Shown: positions 20,838-61,887, counted from the first letter of the stretch. The stretch is 64,000 nt of DNA from Escherichia coli (GCF_016026235.1 NZ_CP065613.1), one strand, 5' to 3'. Numbers and translations are program-made. The notes: generated from the sequence alone by a model not told the origin.

Positions 20838-21230
20838 TTATTTCTGCAAATGAGTGACCCGAACGACGGCCGGCGCGCTTTTCTTATCCAGACTGCCGCT
20901 AATGTTGATCATCTGGTCCGGCTGAACTTCTCGTCCATCAAAGACGGCCGCAGGAATCACGACATTAATTTCACCGCTCTTATCGCGAAAAACGTAACGG
21001 TCCTCTCCTTTGTGAGAAATCAAATTACCGCGTAGTGAAACCGAAGCGCCATCGTGCATGGTTTTTGCGAAATCAACGGTCATTTTTTTTGCATCATCGG
21101 TTCCGCGATAGCCATCTTCTATTGCATGAGGCGGCGGTGGCGCTGCATCCTGTTTTAAACCGCCCTGGTCATCTGCCAACGCATAAGGCATGACAAGAAA
21201 ACTTGCTAATACAATGGTCTGAAATTTCAT
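20838..21230 (-). CDS. ydeI: Periplasmic OB-fold (BOF/YgiW-family) stress protein YdeI
   Basis: 130-aa ORF with signal peptide. Confidence 0.85.
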
Positions 21231-50904: not shown

Positions 50905-52198
50905 CTGAGGAATCCCCAGAAAACAAGACAGGCATAGTGAGATGTGATCTAATTGATTGTGCTAACAATTTCAAGGAGATCACCACTATGCCTGCACGTT
51001 CATTATGCCAAAATTTCCTTAACAACATACTGGCCCCTTTGCATCTTTACCGTCAAAAATCACTGATTGACGCAACTAATGCTGTAATAAATGGCGCTTC
51101 CCTCACACTTACCAGTATCGGGCGTCATTTAACCGGTACGGCATCAGTTAAAAACAAAATAAAGCGGGTGGATCGACTGTTGGGGAATCGACATTTGCAA
51201 AATGAGGTTTCCACCATTTTTCAGCGAATTACCCAAAAGATTACGCGGGGAATGTCTCGTGTTGTGATACTCATTGACTGGAGTGCTTATCATGCCTCTC
51301 GTTTTCAGCTTTTGCGGGCAAGCCTGGCATGTGACGGGCGTTCTTTACCGTTGATGAGTTGTGTCGTTCCATCATCACAGACAGCGAATGCAGATGTACA
51401 TGAGCGTTTTCTGGAATCGCTTGCTGAGTGCTTTTCCCCCGGGACTGATGTCATTGTTATTACAGATGCCGGTTTTCAGGGGCGATGGTTCCAACAGCTC
51501 CGCTCCCGTGGCTGGACCTATATTTGCCGGGTACTGGGCAATCATTATTACAATGTTGGTAATGGCTGGGAAAAGGTGTCGGACTCAGGCACAAAAGCAT
51601 CAACGACAGCAATTTATTTAGGTGAAGGCCTGCTGGGTCGAGATAAAAATGCACAACATGAAGGGCATTTTTATCTTTATAAAAGTAAGCCTAAAGGTCG
51701 TAGATTTAAACGCTCGAAGGAAAGAGCAACCAGACCATCGGTGACGGCTAAAGCTCGTACTGCCGGGAAATCACCATGGTTTATTTTCACAAACAGTACT
51801 GAGTTCTCGCCAAAACAGGTAATGAAATTATACAGCCGTAGAATGCAAATTGAGCAAAATTTCAGGGATGAAAAAAATCCTCGCTGGGGATTTGGACTAC
51901 GGTTTGGTGCCAGTCATTCATCCGGGCGGGTCACGGTATTGAGTCTGATCGCAACATTAGCCAGTATCATTATGTGGTTAAGCGGTTTCAGCCTGGAAAA
52001 CAAAGGGATACATCATAAATATCAGGCAAATACAGTGAAGCACAGGCGAGTCATCTCGTTATTAAAACTGGCGGAGAATGTGATTCGACATTCTCCACTC
52101 ATACTAAACACACTGTCACTTGACGCAGGGCTGAAAGTTCTACAGCAACGGTATACCAATATGATAATGGTTTACTAAATTTTCTGGGGATCCCTCAG
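50905..52198 (+). mobile_element. IS4-family (IS10-like) insertion sequence with 18-bp terminal inverted repeats CTGAGG(A/G)ATCCCCAGAAA
   Basis: Left end 50905-50922 CTGAGGAATCCCCAGAAA; right end 52181-52198 reverse-complements to CTGAGGGATCCCCAGAAA (17/18); single transposase ORF. Confidence 0.75.
50988..52178 (+). CDS. IS4-family DDE transposase (IS10-like); start at MPARSL preceded by AAGGAG
   Basis: ORF 50937-52178; YREK signature (Y-x2-R-x3-E-x6-K in YSRRMQIEQNFRDEK); segments resembling the IS10 transposase as recalled (IKRVDRLLGNRHL, ITDAGF, YQANTV). Confidence 0.8.
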   Translation: MPARSLCQNFLNNILAPLHLYRQKSLIDATNAVINGASLTLTSIGRHLTGTASVKNKIKRVDRLLGNRHLQNEVSTIFQRITQKITRGMSRVVILIDWSAYHASRFQLLRASLACDGRSLPLMSCVVPSSQTANADVHERFLESLAECFSPGTDVIVITDAGFQGRWFQQLRSRGWTYICRVLGNHYYNVGNGWEKVSDSGTKASTTAIYLGEGLLGRDKNAQHEGHFYLYKSKPKGRRFKRSKERATRPSVTAKARTAGKSPWFIFTNSTEFSPKQVMKLYSRRMQIEQNFRDEKNPRWGFGLRFGASHSSGRVTVLSLIATLASIIMWLSGFSLENKGIHHKYQANTVKHRRVISLLKLAENVIRHSPLILNTLSLDAGLKVLQQRYTNMIMVY

Positions 52199-52835: not shown

Positions 52836-54050
52836 TTACCAGTTCCACAGCGTGCCATCTTCCAGACGTGCGACTGGTAGATAAGCAGGTTCATAGGGAT
52901 ATTTCGCCGCCAGCTTTTCATCGAATTCGATGCCAAGACCCGGTTTGTCTCCCGGATGCATATAGCCGTTATCGAAAGTCCAGTTGTGCGGGAAGACTTC
53001 GAGCATTTGTTCGGAATAACCCATGTATTCCTGGACACCGAAATTGGGGACCCACAGATCAAAGTGCAGCGCTGCAGCCATGCAGACTGGTGACAAATCG
53101 GAAGGACCGTGTGAGCCAGTACGTACCTGATACAGCGAAGCAAAATCGGCAATCCGGCGCATACCGGTAATTCCGCCTGCATGGGTCAGCGTGGTGCGGA
53201 TATAATCGATGAGTTGCTCTTCAATCAGTTGTTTGCAGTCCCAGATGCTGTTGAAGACTTCACCCACTGCGATGGGTGTGACGGTATGTTGGCGAATGAG
53301 ACGGAAGCATTCCTGGTTTTCCGCAGGCGTCGGGTCTTCCATCCAGAACATGCGATAATCTTCAATGCTTTTACCAAAGCGCGCCGCTTCAATAGGCGTT
53401 AAGCGATGGTGCATGTCATGCAGCAAATGTTCATTAAAACCAAACTTGTTACGTACCGCGTCAAACAATTTCGGCATGAAATCGAGGTATTTCTCCGTCG
53501 ACCACAGCTGCTCTTCCGGCCACTGTCCTTTGGTTGCGGGTTCATAAGCCAGACCTTTACCTTTCGACATGCCGTAGGTGGTTTTCATACCAGGGATTCC
53601 GCACTGCACGCGGATGGCTTTGAATCCCAGCTCCTGATGACGGGCATAATCATCCAGAGCTTCATCAATACTGTGACCGGTGGTATGGCAATAAACCATC
53701 ACCCCTTCACGAGACGCGCCGCCGAGTAACTGGTAAAGCGGCATGTTGGCAGCTTTGGCTTTAATATCCCACAGCGCCATATCAACCGCTGAAATGGCCG
53801 ACATCGTAACCGGACCGCGACGCCAGTAAGCACCTTTATAGAAAAACTGCCAGATATCTTCGATACGGTGCGCATCGCGACCAATAAGCTGCGGACAAAG
53901 GTGATCCTGCAAATAAGAGGCCACGGAAAGCTCACGTCCATTGAGGGTGGCATCCCCAAGGCCCGTAATACCGTCCTCAGTGGTGATTTTTAATGTGACG
54001 AAATTACGCCCCGGACAGGTAACAAAAACTTCAGCCTTTACGATCTTCAT
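52836..54050 (-). CDS. rspA: Starvation-sensing protein RspA (enolase-superfamily mannonate dehydratase-like)
   Basis: ORF 52836-54083; start [17 protein letters not shown] at 54050 (404 aa). Confidence 0.9.
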
Positions 54051-54255
54051 GTTCGATTCCTTGCATCGCTTGTCGTGATGCATGAAATCTACGCAACTGA
54101 ACTACTACCATACAAGTATGAAGATCGAAAAAAGCCGGAGTGATCACAAAAAAAGGCGTATATTTGCGCTGTGAATGGTTGACAAAAGATGAAATAGAAT
54201 ACCTTTTGTCAGCTGACGCTTCCTCGTATCTTATTGATAAAATGGATTTATGTTC

Positions 54256-54582
54256 CTACGTGCGCCCCCAGCCCGCAACAATGATCAACATGCCGCAAAG
54301 CGCAATCAACGCACCCGTCCAGTCATAAAGTGTCAGTTTCACGCCATCCACAACGCGCAGCCACATCAACGCCGTGCAGACATAAACGCCACCATAAGCC
54401 GCGTAAACACGCCCACTCGCCGCAGGATGCAACGTTAACAACCAGACAAACAGCGCCAGTGAAATCCCCGCCGGAAGCAACAGCCAGATACTGGCGTTTC
54501 GTTTTAACCACAACCAGGGCAGAAAGCATCCAATAATTTCACACAGCGCAGTAGCAAAAAATAGTAACGTTGTTTTAATCAT
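54256..54582 (-). CDS. ynfA: UPF0060 membrane protein YnfA
   Basis: ORF 54256-54591; 108-aa hydrophobic protein from [20 protein letters not shown]. Confidence 0.85.
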
Positions 54583-54716
54583 CTTTGTCACTTATTGACA
54601 TCATGTATAGTTATAGGGCGACATAATATCATCAATATAAACACCCTCCTGGTACGTTTTGCGTCCGCAGTGGATGGTGTAGAATCACCTTTAATCATTC
54701 ACACAGGGAATGAATT

Positions 54717-55058
54717 ATGAAAATCACTCTCAGCAAACGAATCGGCCTGCTCGCTTTTCTGCTGCCTTGCGCACTGGCATTGAGCACAACTGTTCATGCC
54801 GAAACTAACAAACTGGTGATTGAGTCTGGCGACAGTGCACAAAGCCGCCAGCACGCCGCTATGGAAAAAGAGCAATGGAATGACACGCGCAATCTGCGCC
54901 AGAAAGTGAATAAACGCACTGAAAAAGAGTGGGATAAAGCCGACGCCGCTTTTGATAACCGCGATAAATGTGAGCAAAGCGCCAACATCAATGCCTACTG
55001 GGAGCCAAATACTTTGCGCTGCCTGGACCGTCGAACTGGCCGCGTTATTACCCCCTAA
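54717..55058 (+). CDS. ynfB: Secreted protein YnfB (UPF0482)
   Basis: 113-aa ORF with signal peptide. Confidence 0.85.
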
Positions 55059-55092
55059 CCTGTTATTGATTTAAGGAATGTAAGGACACGTT

Positions 55093-55653
55093 ATGCCAAG
55101 CGCCCACAGTGTTAAGCTACGCCCGCTGGAGCGTGAAGATTTACGCTATGTACATCAACTCGACAATAACGCCAGTGTGATGCGTTACTGGTTTGAGGAA
55201 CCCTACGAAGCCTTTGTTGAACTCTCTGATCTGTATGATAAGCATATTCACGATCAGAGCGAACGACGCTTTGTGGTGGAATGTGACGGCGAAAAAGCCG
55301 GTCTGGTGGAGTTGGTGGAAATTAACCATGTACATCGCCGCGCAGAATTTCAGATAATTATCTCCCCGGAGTATCAGGGGAAAGGTCTGGCAACCCGTGC
55401 CGCCAAATTAGCAATGGACTATGGCTTCACCGTTCTCAATCTCTATAAGCTGTATCTGATCGTTGATAAAGAGAATGAAAAAGCGATTCACATTTACCGC
55501 AAGCTTGGCTTTACGGTTGAAGGTGAATTGATGCATGAGTTCTTTATTAATGGTCAATATCGTAATGCCATTCGCATGTGTATATTCCAGCATCAGTATC
55601 TGGCAGAGCACAAAACACCGGGTCAGACTCTCCTGAAGCCGACCGCACAATAG
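55093..55653 (+). CDS. speG: Spermidine N1-acetyltransferase SpeG (GNAT)
   Basis: 186-aa ORF; GNAT fold. Confidence 0.9.
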
Positions 55654-55655
55654 CA

Positions 55656-56366
55656 TTAATAATAATCGATCGTATTTTTGATGGTGTAAACCCGTTCGAC
55701 GGCGGGTTTTACTCCTTCATCAACAATGATCAGCTGACAGTCCACCGGATTGGCGTGACTGTCATATTCACAGCTCTGTTTTACATTACCAACTCGTTGA
55801 TTATTCAGTAAAGTAACCGCTGTGTAATCTAATTTTTTGATCGGGTCCGTTGATGGCGTGGCGCTGACAGATAATGTTTTGTCGTTACTTTTCGTGGTTT
55901 TACCCAGTGGATAACCCTGATCATCATAGCGATATTCCATCTGCATTTGTTTGCTGCTGGCTTTAATCACGAAGCCATTATCATCGGTTTCCCAACTCAC
56001 CCCGGCAGAAGGTAATTCTGCTAGCTGGCATTTTCCCTGTAAACGTACTCTCTTCTCCAGCGTCTCGGCATCACGGTAATAATTGGCGTCCAGTACCAGA
56101 GCGACCACGGTATTATTTTCCAGATCCAGTAATTCGAGTGAATCAAAACAGCCTTCTTCCGACAAAGTCCCCGAAACACGTTTCGTCACTTCACCTTGCT
56201 CATCCATTAATGTCTGAGTGAAATCTTTTACCGGACCACGCAGCGGATCAAAATCGAATTCATTAGAGAAACTGGCCATCTCAGGAGTAAATGAAAGTGT
56301 TACCTCTGTGCGGTCACATCCTGTGAGTAATATCGCGAGTAAGCATGGCAGTAATTTGTATTTCAC
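55656..56366 (-). CDS. ynfC: Lipoprotein YnfC (UPF0257); GTG start
   Basis: ORF 55656-56402; lipobox LLTGC near the N-terminus when started at GTG 56364-56366. Confidence 0.8.
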   Translation of the reverse strand: MKYKLLPCLLAILLTGCDRTEVTLSFTPEMASFSNEFDFDPLRGPVKDFTQTLMDEQGEVTKRVSGTLSEEGCFDSLELLDLENNTVVALVLDANYYRDAETLEKRVRLQGKCQLAELPSAGVSWETDDNGFVIKASSKQMQMEYRYDDQGYPLGKTTKSNDKTLSVSATPSTDPIKKLDYTAVTLLNNQRVGNVKQSCEYDSHANPVDCQLIIVDEGVKPAVERVYTIKNTIDYY

Positions 56367-56473
56367 ATCAGTCACCAGAGAGTAGAGATGATTCTCAATC
56401 ATAGTAGCAAATACAGTACTTTACACGTTAAATGCTATGCTTAAAGAAGTTATCTTCGCGTAAGGAGCTTATG

Positions 56474-56779
56474 ATGAAACTCTCAACCTGCTGTGCCGCG
56501 CTTCTGCTCGCCCTCGCCTCACCCGCGGTACTCGCCGCGCCGGGATCCTGTGAGCGCATACAAAGCGATATATCACAGCGCATTATCAATAATGGCGTAC
56601 CCGAAAGCAGCTTCACGTTAAGTATTGTACCCAATGACCAGGTTGATCAGCCTGATTCCCAGGTCGTCGGGCATTGCGCTAATGATACGCATAAAATTCT
56701 CTACACCCGCACCACCAGCGGTAACGTCTCTGCTCCCGCGCAGTCTACCCAGGATGGCGCGCCTGCCGAACCGCAGTAA
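56474..56779 (+). CDS. ynfD: Secreted protein YnfD (DUF1161)
   Basis: ORF 56432-56779; signal peptide MKLSTCCAALLLALASPAVLA. Confidence 0.8.
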   Translation: MKLSTCCAALLLALASPAVLAAPGSCERIQSDISQRIINNGVPESSFTLSIVPNDQVDQPDSQVVGHCANDTHKILYTRTTSGNVSAPAQSTQDGAPAEPQ

Positions 56780-56795
56780 CACATTATCGACTGAA

Positions 56796-56818
56796 CGCCG
56801 GATACGACGCATCCGGCG
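56796..56818 (+). terminator. REP-like palindromic hairpin after ynfD
   Basis: CGCCGGATACGACGCATCCGGCG perfect stem. Confidence 0.4.
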
Positions 56819-56863
56819 ATTTGAACATACAACATAACCCACCTTATTACTCATACCCTTCTA

Positions 56864-56877
56864 TTGATATGGATTAA
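56864..56877 (+). promoter_or_regulatory. Candidate FNR site TTGAT-N4-ATTAA upstream of ynfE
   Basis: One mismatch to TTGAT-N4-ATCAA, about 100 bp upstream of the ynfE start; anaerobic control is expected for this operon. Confidence 0.35.
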
Positions 56878-56976
56878 TAATTCTTAACCCAAAATGGGTA
56901 GACTCCCTCTATTGTTAGCGCGCTAAATATTCAATATATAAACTTTTATATAACGATAAAGAACAGGGAGTGAGTT

Positions 56977-59403
56977 ATGTCCAAAAATGAACAAATGGTG
57001 GGCATCAGCCGCAGAACACTCGTTAAATCCACCGCGATAGGTTCTCTGGCGCTGGCTGCAGGCGGTTTTTCTTTACCGTTCACCCTGCGCAGTGCAGCGG
57101 CAGCGGTACAACAGGCCAGCGAGAAAGTGGTCTGGGGTGCCTGTTCCGTCAACTGTGGTAGCCGCTGTGCACTTCGTCTGCATGTTAAAGATAATGAAGT
57201 GATCTGGGTGGAAACTGACAACACCGGCAACGACGAGTATGGCAATCATCAAGTACGCGCCTGTTTGCGCGGTCGCTCCATCCGCCGGCGTATTAATCAT
57301 CCCGATCGCTTGAATTACCCAATGAAACGCGTGGGTAAACGCGGTGAACGCAAATTCGAACGGATTAGCTGGGATGAAGCCCTAGATACTATCGCCAGTA
57401 GCCTGAAAAAAACCGTCGAACAATATGGCAATGAGGCTGTATATATTCAGTACTCTTCGGGGATTGTTGGCGGCAATATGACCCGCTCTTCGCCATCAGC
57501 CTCGGCGGTCAAACGCCTGATGAACTGCTACGGCGGTTCACTCAACCAGTATGGCTCCTACAGCACTGCGCAAATTTCCTGTGCCATGCCCTACACCTAC
57601 GGCAGTAATGATGGCAACAGCACCACGGATATTGAAAACAGCAAGCTGGTCGTGATGTTTGGTAACAACCCGGCAGAAACCCGCATGAGCGGCGGTGGCA
57701 TCACTTATCTTCTTGAAAAAGCGCGCGAAAAATCGAACGCAAAAATGATTGTTATCGATCCGCGATATACCGATACGGCTGCCGGTCGTGAAGACGAATG
57801 GCTTCCTATTCGCCCGGGCACCGATGCCGCGCTGGTTGCGGGTATTGCCTGGGTATTGATTAACGAAAATCTCGTTGATCAACCTTTTCTCGATAAATAC
57901 TGCGTCGGCTATGACGAAAAAACCTTACCCGCAGATGCACCCCAAAATGGTCACTATAAAGCCTATATTCTTGGTGAAGGAGACGATAAAACAGCGAAAA
58001 CGCCGCAGTGGGCTTCGCAAATTACCGGTATCCCAGTGGACCGTATCATCAAACTGGCGCGTGAAATTGGCACAGCAAAACCCGCTTATATCTGCCAGGG
58101 CTGGGGGCCGCAACGCCAGGCAAACGGCGAACTGACCGCACGCGCTATTGCTATGTTGCCAATTCTGACGGGCAATGTCGGCATCAGCGGCGGAAATAGT
58201 GGCGCGCGTGAATCGACCTATACCATTACCATAGAACGCCTGCCGGTGCTGGATAATCCGGTCAAAACGTCAATTTCCTGCTTCAGCTGGACAGATGCTA
58301 TCGATCATGGTCCGCAAATGACGGCAATCCGCGACGGCGTCCGCGGCAAAGATAAACTGGATGTGCCCATTAAGTTCATCTGGAACTACGCGGGAAATAC
58401 CCTGGTTAATCAGCATTCTGACATCAACAAAACGCATGAAATTCTGCAAGACGAATCGAAATGCGAAATGATTGTGGTCATCGAAAACTTTATGACCTCA
58501 TCGGCAAAATATGCCGACATTCTGCTGCCAGACCTGATGACCGTTGAGCAGGAAGATATTATTCCTAACGACTACGCCGGTAACATGGGATATCTCATTT
58601 TCCTCCAGCCAGTCACCAGCGAAAAATTCGAACGTAAACCGATTTACTGGATCCTGAGTGAAGTCGCGAAACGTCTTGGACCTGACGTCTATCAAAAGTT
58701 CACTGAAGGTCGCACGCAGGAACAATGGTTACAACATCTGTACGCCAAAATGCTTGCCAAAGATCCGGCGTTACCGTCTTACGACGAACTGAAAAAAATG
58801 GGTATCTATAAGCGTAAAGATCCCAATGGTCATTTTGTCGCCTACAAAGCATTTCGTGACGACCCCGAGGCAAATCCACTTAAAACACCTTCCGGTAAGA
58901 TTGAAATTTATTCCAGCAAGCTGGCGGAAATTGCCCGTACCTGGGAACTGGAAAAAGATGAAGTGATAAGCCCACTGCCAGTTTATGCCTCTACCTTTGA
59001 AGGCTGGGACTCACCTGAACGTAGAACCTTCCCACTGCAACTGTTTGGTTTCCATTACAAATCCCGTACTCACTCGACCTACGGCAACATTGATGTCCTG
59101 AAAGCAGCCTGCCGTCAGGAGGTGTGGATCAACCCTATAGATGCGCAGAAACGTGGGATTGCCAACGGCGATATGGTGCGGGTGTTTAACCATCGTGGCG
59201 AAGTTCGGCTACCAGCCAAAGTGACACCACGTATTCTCCCTGGAGTTAGCGCTATGGGCCAGGGAGCCTGGCACGAGGCCAATATGTCTGGCGATAAAAT
59301 CGACCATGGAGGCTGTGTGAATACGCTAACCACTCTGCGCCCTACACCACTGGCGAAGGGAAACCCGCAGCATACGAATCTGGTCGAGATCGAAAAAATA
59401 TAA
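56977..59403 (+). CDS. ynfE: Molybdopterin-containing selenate / DMSO-reductase-family catalytic subunit YnfE (Tat-exported)
   Basis: 808-aa ORF with twin-arginine signal (...SRRTLVK...) and N-terminal Cys cluster. Confidence 0.9.
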   Translation: MSKNEQMVGISRRTLVKSTAIGSLALAAGGFSLPFTLRSAAAAVQQASEKVVWGACSVNCGSRCALRLHVKDNEVIWVETDNTGNDEYGNHQVRACLRGRSIRRRINHPDRLNYPMKRVGKRGERKFERISWDEALDTIASSLKKTVEQYGNEAVYIQYSSGIVGGNMTRSSPSASAVKRLMNCYGGSLNQYGSYSTAQISCAMPYTYGSNDGNSTTDIENSKLVVMFGNNPAETRMSGGGITYLLEKAREKSNAKMIVIDPRYTDTAAGREDEWLPIRPGTDAALVAGIAWVLINENLVDQPFLDKYCVGYDEKTLPADAPQNGHYKAYILGEGDDKTAKTPQWASQITGIPVDRIIKLAREIGTAKPAYICQGWGPQRQANGELTARAIAMLPILTGNVGISGGNSGARESTYTITIERLPVLDNPVKTSISCFSWTDAIDHGPQMTAIRDGVRGKDKLDVPIKFIWNYAGNTLVNQHSDINKTHEILQDESKCEMIVVIENFMTSSAKYADILLPDLMTVEQEDIIPNDYAGNMGYLIFLQPVTSEKFERKPIYWILSEVAKRLGPDVYQKFTEGRTQEQWLQHLYAKMLAKDPALPSYDELKKMGIYKRKDPNGHFVAYKAFRDDPEANPLKTPSGKIEIYSSKLAEIARTWELEKDEVISPLPVYASTFEGWDSPERRTFPLQLFGFHYKSRTHSTYGNIDVLKAACRQEVWINPIDAQKRGIANGDMVRVFNHRGEVRLPAKVTPRILPGVSAMGQGAWHEANMSGDKIDHGGCVNTLTTLRPTPLAKGNPQHTNLVEIEKI

Positions 59404-61887: not shown

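Follow-up and report, generated by a model that had tools for sequence, protein, structure and literature searches.

In the ynfEFGH-dmsD operon of Escherichia coli, two adjacent genes, ynfE and ynfF, each encode the catalytic subunit of a membrane-bound molybdoenzyme, and one gene follows for each of the partner subunits. We examined this gene pair in a 64,000-nucleotide stretch of E. coli DNA (GCF_016026235.1, NZ_CP065613.1), hereafter the window, from whose first nucleotide all positions are counted. The region is almost certainly E. coli chromosome carrying the 5′ half of the ynfEFGH-dmsD operon, with ynfE and ynfF as ancient tandem paralogs, either of which specifies a full catalytic (A) subunit for a periplasm-facing, membrane-bound molybdoenzyme of the DmsABC type. 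This is an ordinary, textbook case of an annotated gene pair, as a previous reading made from the sequence only had correctly recognized, and the ynf operon, its paralogy with dmsABC, its control by FNR, and its role as a selenate/tellurate reductase have all been published before.

Two catalytic genes and their partner genes

Mechanical calling of open reading frames (ORFs) placed two frames of 808 codons each on the + strand, at 56977-59403 and 59461-61887, and both genes are intact in the window. The sequence-only reading had described them as adjacent 808-codon genes for collinear molybdopterin oxidoreductases exported by the twin-arginine translocation (Tat) system, with an identity of roughly 75% estimated by eye, and had proposed a pairwise alignment as the check. 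The codon count holds for the ORFs as called, but ynfF is annotated with 807 aa, since of the two ATGs that stand side by side here, RefSeq and K-12 use the later one (59464) as the start; the spacing of the AGTGAG Shine-Dalgarno sequence also suits this ATG better than the one at 59461. When aligned by BLASTP, YnfE and YnfF were identical at 565 of 801 positions (71%; 1224 bits, E = 0, 85% positives, 9 gap positions), and the alignment was collinear from the signal peptide through the last residue. Global alignment gave 71.1% identity and the DNA identity was 70%; the estimate by eye was thus somewhat too high, and the low similarity that had been named as the contrary outcome did not appear. 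A repeat finder, used independently, also picked up the two genes in the DNA as direct repeats (70-77% identity; start-to-start spacing 2484/2496 nt). The similarity between the two proteins was confirmed as real and far above chance.

For the assignment to NCBIfam families, a full-length score was required to exceed both the curated cut-off of the model and the score obtained on the sister model. The ORF at 56977-59403 reached 1792.7 bits on the YnfE model (NF041885, cut-off 1675) versus 1473.1 bits on the YnfF model, and the second ORF reached 1771.5 bits on the YnfF model (NF041884, cut-off 1650) versus 1479.3 bits on the YnfE model, so that the only cut-off each protein exceeded of these two was that of its own model. 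On the DmsA model (NF011566, cut-off 1600), both remained below the cut-off, with 1339.1 bits for YnfE and 1316.8 bits for YnfF, and both passed TIGR02166 (dmsA_ynfE, the A subunit of the dimethyl sulfoxide (DMSO)/selenate family; cut-off 777.7) with 1393.3 and 1282.2 bits, respectively. YnfE and YnfF are DmsA paralogs, neither of them being DmsA itself.

The Pfam domains PF04879 (Fe4S4), PF00384 (molybdopterin oxidoreductase), and PF01568 (dinucleotide-binding) were identified in both proteins, and the FS0 cysteine motif C-x3-C-x3-C-x31-C (C56, C60, C64, and C96 in YnfE) has the same form in YnfE, YnfF, and DmsA. The twin-arginine motif (S-R-R-x-L-x-K) reads SRRTLVK at residues 11-17 of YnfE and SRRSLMK at residues 15-21 of YnfF, and it is followed in each case by an A/L/G-rich stretch and then by ...LPF... 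as in DmsA; the Tat export and the molybdopterin oxidoreductase identity that had been read from the sequence are borne out by these features. Regarding the leader n-region, that of YnfF resembles the one in DmsA. The segment GSYSTAQ (S196 in YnfE) is conserved in both proteins and aligns with gdYSTgaa of the trimethylamine N-oxide (TMAO) reductase 7l5i, and the serine of the YST triplet, the molybdenum ligand in DorA/DmsA, may have this role in YnfE and YnfF. The closest solved structures were of the TorA and DorA types, and no structure of DmsA, YnfE, or YnfF was found in the PDB.

Downstream of the two A-type genes there is a single B-type gene (ynfG) and a single anchor gene (ynfH), followed by dmsD, which gives the gene order A-A-B-C-chaperone, all on the + strand, with spacers of 60, 10, 1, and 42 nt. 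With one iron-sulfur gene and one anchor gene after ynfE and ynfF, shared subunits are the natural reading, in agreement with the sequence-only reading, which had also placed dmsD next; the window ends within that gene, leaving 195 of 204 codons visible. YnfH had no NCBIfam match at E ≤ 0.001 despite its strong match to Pfam DmsC (Table 1), and its RefSeq name is selenate reductase membrane anchor. The 6-kb region was 99.9% identical to that of E. coli FDAARGOS_943, where the annotated genes are ynfD, ynfE, ynfF, ynfG, ynfH, dmsD, and clcB, and it matched 5424 of 5426 complete E. coli genomes. Every sequence-level feature of membership in ynfEFGH-dmsD that was tested (family models, domains, Tat motifs, gene order) was found. 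Two antisense ORFs, at 59115-59693 and 61802-62422, had no Pfam match and were treated as spurious, and a search of positions 54000-64000 against Rfam (E ≤ 1) returned zero matches.

When compared to K-12, where the operon ynfEFGH-dmsD (ynfEFGHI) includes ynfE as b1587 and ynfF as b1588, the window showed the same genes, order, lengths, and spacer. The DNA was 98.6% identical to that of K-12 MG1655 over b1587-b1590 (ynfE-ynfH), and the protein differences were only allelic: YnfE differs at 12 residues, YnfF at 2, and YnfH at 5. Across 56977-63371, the divergence from K-12 was mosaic (ynfE 2.35%, ynfF 0.50%, ynfG 0.49%, ynfH 2.1%), a pattern that recombination among E. coli lineages typically produces.

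Age of the duplication and selection on the two copies

In the codon alignment of ynfE and ynfF, identity was 47% at third positions and 39% at fourfold sites, and the longest identical run measured 17 nt. Saturation at synonymous sites and so short a common run show that the duplication is ancient, without recent gene conversion; no window with raised synonymous or third-position identity between the two genes was found, and recent conversion was rejected as a candidate. The comparison with dmsA, likewise proposed by the sequence-only reading, gave identities to K-12 DmsA of 67.0% for YnfE and 66.6% for YnfF, so that the two proteins are equidistant from DmsA and closer to each other (71%) than to it. 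On three sequences and with no outgroup, these values would fit a duplication of the operon (dmsABC and ynf) followed fairly soon by a tandem duplication in which the A gene was copied, after which the two copies evolved at similar rates. The YnfE/YnfF pair of Salmonella is also 71% identical (PMC5203670), which makes the pair older than the Escherichia-Salmonella split. That the duplication is a known one, as had been stated, is confirmed in those passages of PMC5203670, PMC12096835, and PMC12724226 that cite Lubitz and Weiner (2003) and Guymer et al. (2009) for its description. Between the window and K-12, the ratio of nonsynonymous to synonymous substitution rates (dN/dS) was 0.076 for ynfE and 0.057 for ynfF, and purifying selection within E. 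coli is strong on both.

Besides K-12, three known systems were considered for comparison. Salmonella enterica carries the same ynfEFGH-dmsD operon, its DmsD binds both leaders (PMC5203670), and its YnfE n-region is unlike those of YnfF and DmsA, as in the window; Salmonella is a different genus, and the copy-by-copy orthology rests on PMC5203670. E. coli DmsABC has the same composition, namely a Tat-exported A subunit with molybdenum bis(pyranopterin guanine dinucleotide) (Mo-bisPGD) and FS0, a four-cluster B subunit, and a membrane anchor C, together with the chaperone DmsD and FNR control, and its identity to the Ynf proteins is 67% for A, 94% for B, and 57% for C. In contrast to the ynf operon, dmsABC contains a single A gene and lacks a chaperone gene in cis, and its assigned substrates are S- and N-oxides, whereas those of Ynf are selenate and tellurate. 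Enterobacter cloacae SrnABC, a selenate reductase from the same superfamily, is also bound to the membrane and faces the periplasm, and srnA restores selenate reduction in E. coli ΔynfEF (PMC12724226); it differs in having a single catalytic gene, not a tandem pair, and in its placement on a separate branch of the tree in PMC12724226.

Among the partner subunits, YnfG (61898-62515) was 94.1% identical to DmsB (gene at 3915-4532 of locus L003), as against 67% for the A subunits and 57% for the anchors. Gene conversion between ynfG and dmsB was considered as a source of this protein identity and rejected, given that identity at fourfold sites was 0.40, a saturation equal to that of the other pairs; very strong purifying selection on the iron-sulfur subunit thus accounts for the conservation of YnfG and DmsB.

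Control of the operon

Upstream of ynfE lies an FNR-like site, found by pattern search, with its centre 40.5 bp upstream of position 56911, the presumed transcription start (Table 1). Between 56838 and the start codon of ynfE, the window does not differ from K-12, and the ynfD-ynfE spacer measures 197 nt in the window versus 198 nt in K-12. A NarL-type heptamer overlaps the putative -10 hexamer, and NarL repression at the ynfE promoter is something that Xu, Busby, and Browning are said to have reported in 2009. A sigma-70 consensus scan upstream of ynfE found no promoter, which is expected because this promoter is activator-dependent. The position of the FNR-like site fits the site at -40.5 in the FNR chromatin immunoprecipitation (ChIP) study PMC3688515, in which ynfEFGH-dmsD is directly activated by FNR.

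The spacer between ynfE and ynfF differs from K-12 at one position, 59409. An internal promoter or terminator was sought there by consensus scan and neither was found, a weak negative given that the same scan misses the real FNR-dependent promoter. A spacer with no consensus promoter or terminator is consistent with the five genes being read as one transcription unit.

The end of this spacer carries a stretch complementary to the seed of RyhB. Paired with RyhB nt 39-57, it gave 17 predicted base pairs at -20.8 kcal/mol (RNAduplex), and 2 of 1000 dinucleotide shuffles were as good; a restricted analysis was used here since full-length RNAduplex runs with RyhB produced over-extended, unrealistic duplexes. 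Pairing was also predicted for the start region of dmsA (L003, ~1425-1453; -24.5 kcal/mol, 2 of 1000 shuffles as good) and for that of ynfE (~56962-56982; -17.9 kcal/mol, 6 of 1000), and the restricted analysis predicted none for the initiation regions of ynfG and ynfH. Pairing specific to ynfF was rejected because dmsA and ynfE also pair above chance, and the prediction gives no specificity. In PMC4666370, Ribo-seq lists ynfF and dmsA, not ynfE, as translationally repressed by RyhB, and a ynfF-lacZ fusion from -60 to +24, which corresponds to the ynfE-ynfF spacer, validates the RyhB repression of ynfF translation.

Table 1. Genes of the ynf operon and associated sequence features, in window coordinates.
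Feature	Position	Strand	Description	Protein identity to K-12
REP-like (repetitive extragenic palindromic) inverted repeat GCCGGATacgacgcATCCGGC	56797-56820		Just 3′ of the ynfD stop codon	
FNR-like site TTGATatggATTAA	56864-56877	+	Pattern search; one mismatch to TTGAT-N4-ATCAA; upstream of ynfE	
NarL-type heptamer TACCCAT	56900 down to 56894	-	Heptamer search; overlaps putative -10	
Putative -10 hexamer TAGACT	56899-56904		Placed from the -40.5 FNR spacing	
ynfE	56977-59403	+	808 aa; Tat-exported Mo-bisPGD catalytic subunit; NF041885	98.5%
ynfE-ynfF spacer	59404-59463	+	57 nt to first ATG, 60 nt to annotated ATG	
RyhB-complementary stretch AAAGCAATAAGTGAGTAATGA	59444-59464	+	Spans ynfF Shine-Dalgarno, first ATG (59461-59463), and A of annotated start	
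ynfF	59464-61887	+	807 aa as annotated (ORF from ATG at 59461); NF041884	99.8%
ynfG	61898-62515	+	205-aa four-cluster ferredoxin subunit; TIGR02951 264.8 bits, Fer4_11	100%
ynfH	62517-63371	+	284-aa membrane anchor/quinol-oxidising subunit; Pfam DmsC PF04976 425.6 bits	98.2%
dmsD (ynfI)	63414-64000	+	Tat proofreading chaperone; PF02613 (NarJ/DmsD family); truncated	99.5% (partial, over 195 aa)

Outside the operon, window positions 29029-50904 (~21.9 kb, ydfJ to rspB) are missing from the otherwise 99.9%-identical FDAARGOS_943 and match lambdoid prophage tail/capsid genes of Shiga toxin-producing E. coli (STEC) O121/O26 strains at ~97%. The IS4-like insertion sequence (IS) ISEc60 (50905-52198; ORF 50937-52178, + strand, 413 aa) interrupts rspB, which encodes a Zn-dependent oxidoreductase, and is oriented opposite to the copy at the same site in FDAARGOS_943; this reversed orientation suggests an IS-bounded rearrangement beside the prophage. 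An IS5 copy located near ydeI in FDAARGOS_943 is absent from the window at ~21206-21208.

Loss of copies and the roles of the two enzymes

A megablast match to the ynfE-ynfF pair was obtained in 5318 of the 5426 complete E. coli genomes, with at least 80% of the pair covered in 5126, and 108 genomes had no match. Among the matching genomes, a recurrent class combined an intact ynfE with a 1570-bp ynfF pseudogene carrying two internal deletions, one of 581 bp (window 60177-60757) and one of 274 bp (window 61532-61805). The junction of the first deletion was present in 546 and that of the second in 554 of the 5426 genomes (~10%), and the carriers include ZH193 (positions 5488-7057 of record L004) and EC958, the reference strain of sequence type 131 (ST131; positions 4264-5833 of record L007). 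The remaining segments of the pseudogene had a dN/dS of 0.07-0.09 and zero in-frame stops, which argues for a recent inactivation; an old, decaying pseudogene was rejected on the same grounds. No obvious microhomology was seen at the deletion junctions, and no E/F hybrid gene from unequal recombination occurred among 60 records sampled across the ranking, in a search that was not systematic. Other losses were observed in individual strains: in 1504D004, a prophage with its integrase lies inside ynfE at ~nt 1397 and ynfG is truncated, and in MB07152, an IS1B-associated deletion takes out ynfE and most of ynfF. The general point of pseudogenisation is already known, as an E. coli pangenome study of 2026 (PMC13322260) counts ynfE and ynfF with the metabolic genes that most often become pseudogenes. 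A 2025 study of EC958 (PMC12096835) counted YnfF among seven S- and N-oxide reductases; that work was done with a ynfF pseudogene, and YnfF should not count as a working enzyme in ST131 strains such as EC958.

With a single B gene and a single C gene present, YnfE-G-H and YnfF-G-H are most likely two alternative isoenzymes that would have partners, chaperone, and promoter in common and would compete for the partners. Under anaerobiosis, FNR bound at -40.5 would activate a single promoter ahead of ynfE, from which all five genes would be co-transcribed. In the cytoplasm, each A subunit would receive Mo-bisPGD and the N-terminal [4Fe-4S] cluster while DmsD holds the twin-arginine leader, after which the A subunit would be exported by Tat along with the one iron-sulfur subunit, YnfG, and dock on the one anchor, YnfH. 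Electrons would then pass from menaquinol through YnfH and YnfG to one of the two A subunits, which would hand them to selenate or tellurate, possibly also to S- or N-oxides, with YnfE as the probable main selenate reductase and YnfF as a minor or differently specialised one. The separate complexes and the electron path in this model are drawn by analogy with DmsABC; FNR activation, DmsD dependence, the selenate and tellurate phenotypes, and the RyhB repression of ynfF come from the literature; and gene identity, intactness, domains and motifs, operon order, duplication age, and purifying selection come from the present analysis.

The putative selenate and tellurate reductase activities rest on published genetics. 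E. coli ΔynfEF cannot reduce selenate, and YnfE and YnfF have been called paralogous selenate reductase isoenzymes (PMC12724226). In Salmonella, YnfF adds little to selenate reduction, and ΔynfF still reduces selenate via YnfE alone (PMC5203670). According to the passage of PMC12096835 that cites Fujita et al. (2021), ynfEF are also tellurate reductase genes. DmsD is required for DmsA, YnfE, and YnfF (PMC10609526), and it binds the leaders of all three (PMC5203670, PMC10609526). The identification of the genes meets no contrary evidence; two published points weaken the proposed mechanism. A direct enzyme assay for YnfE and YnfF is lacking (PMC5203670), and the basal mRNA levels of ynfE and ynfF differ in EC958 (PMC12096835), which fits strict co-transcription poorly; the weight of the latter is reduced because ynfF is a pseudogene in that strain.

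As to what the second copy does, a possible but rather doubtful proposal is that the roles have been divided. Here, ynfF would have kept the ancestral dmsA-like leader together with strong RyhB (iron-sparing) control and would act on a non-selenate substrate, ynfE would have acquired a new n-region and become the main selenate reductase, and the loss of ynfF in ST131 would mark a niche in which the second activity is useless or costly. The predicted RyhB pairing of ynfE, only modestly weaker than that of ynfF (-17.9 versus -20.8 kcal/mol), weighs on this proposal. We consider it unlikely that YnfF is a functionally redundant spare copy in the course of being lost, with only YnfE mattering. The minor share of YnfF in selenate reduction (PMC5203670), the fixation of the two-deletion pseudogene in a lineage to which ~10% of complete genomes belong, ST131 EC958 among them, and the frequent pseudogenisation of both genes (PMC13322260) point in that direction. 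However, the pair has been retained since before the Escherichia-Salmonella split (71% identity in both), the dN/dS of ynfF (0.057) is as low as that of ynfE, the remaining parts of the ST131 pseudogene reveal a recent inactivation, other strains have lost ynfE too, and ynfF is under its own validated RyhB control (PMC4666370).

It is highly improbable that YnfE and YnfF, instead of being alternative catalytic subunits, occur together in one hetero-oligomeric YnfEFGH enzyme. The NCBI names "reductase subunit YnfE" and "reductase subunit YnfF" allow such a reading, both genes are co-encoded with one YnfG and one YnfH, and "YnfEFGH selenate reductase" is written as one entity in some papers, PMC12096835 among them. 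Nevertheless, Salmonella ΔynfF, whose one remaining catalytic subunit is YnfE, reduces selenate (PMC5203670), an intact ynfE stands next to a destroyed ynfF in ~10% of E. coli genomes, and YnfE and YnfF each have a full set of cofactor domains and their own Tat leader, like the lone DmsA in DmsABC. Finally, one might trace the similarity not to an old, stable pair but to a duplication of recent date, to conversion still going on between the genes, or to an error of assembly. The tandem arrangement alone speaks for this idea, which can be set aside with near certainty in view of the saturated fourfold (0.39) and third-position (0.47) identities, the 17-nt longest run, and the same arrangement in more than 5000 complete E. 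coli genomes.

With two isoenzymes as the most likely reading, the ynf operon neatly illustrates an ancient duplication of a catalytic subunit in which electron-transfer partners, chaperone, and promoter are common to both copies. Both copies are strongly conserved by selection, yet either can go in single lineages.

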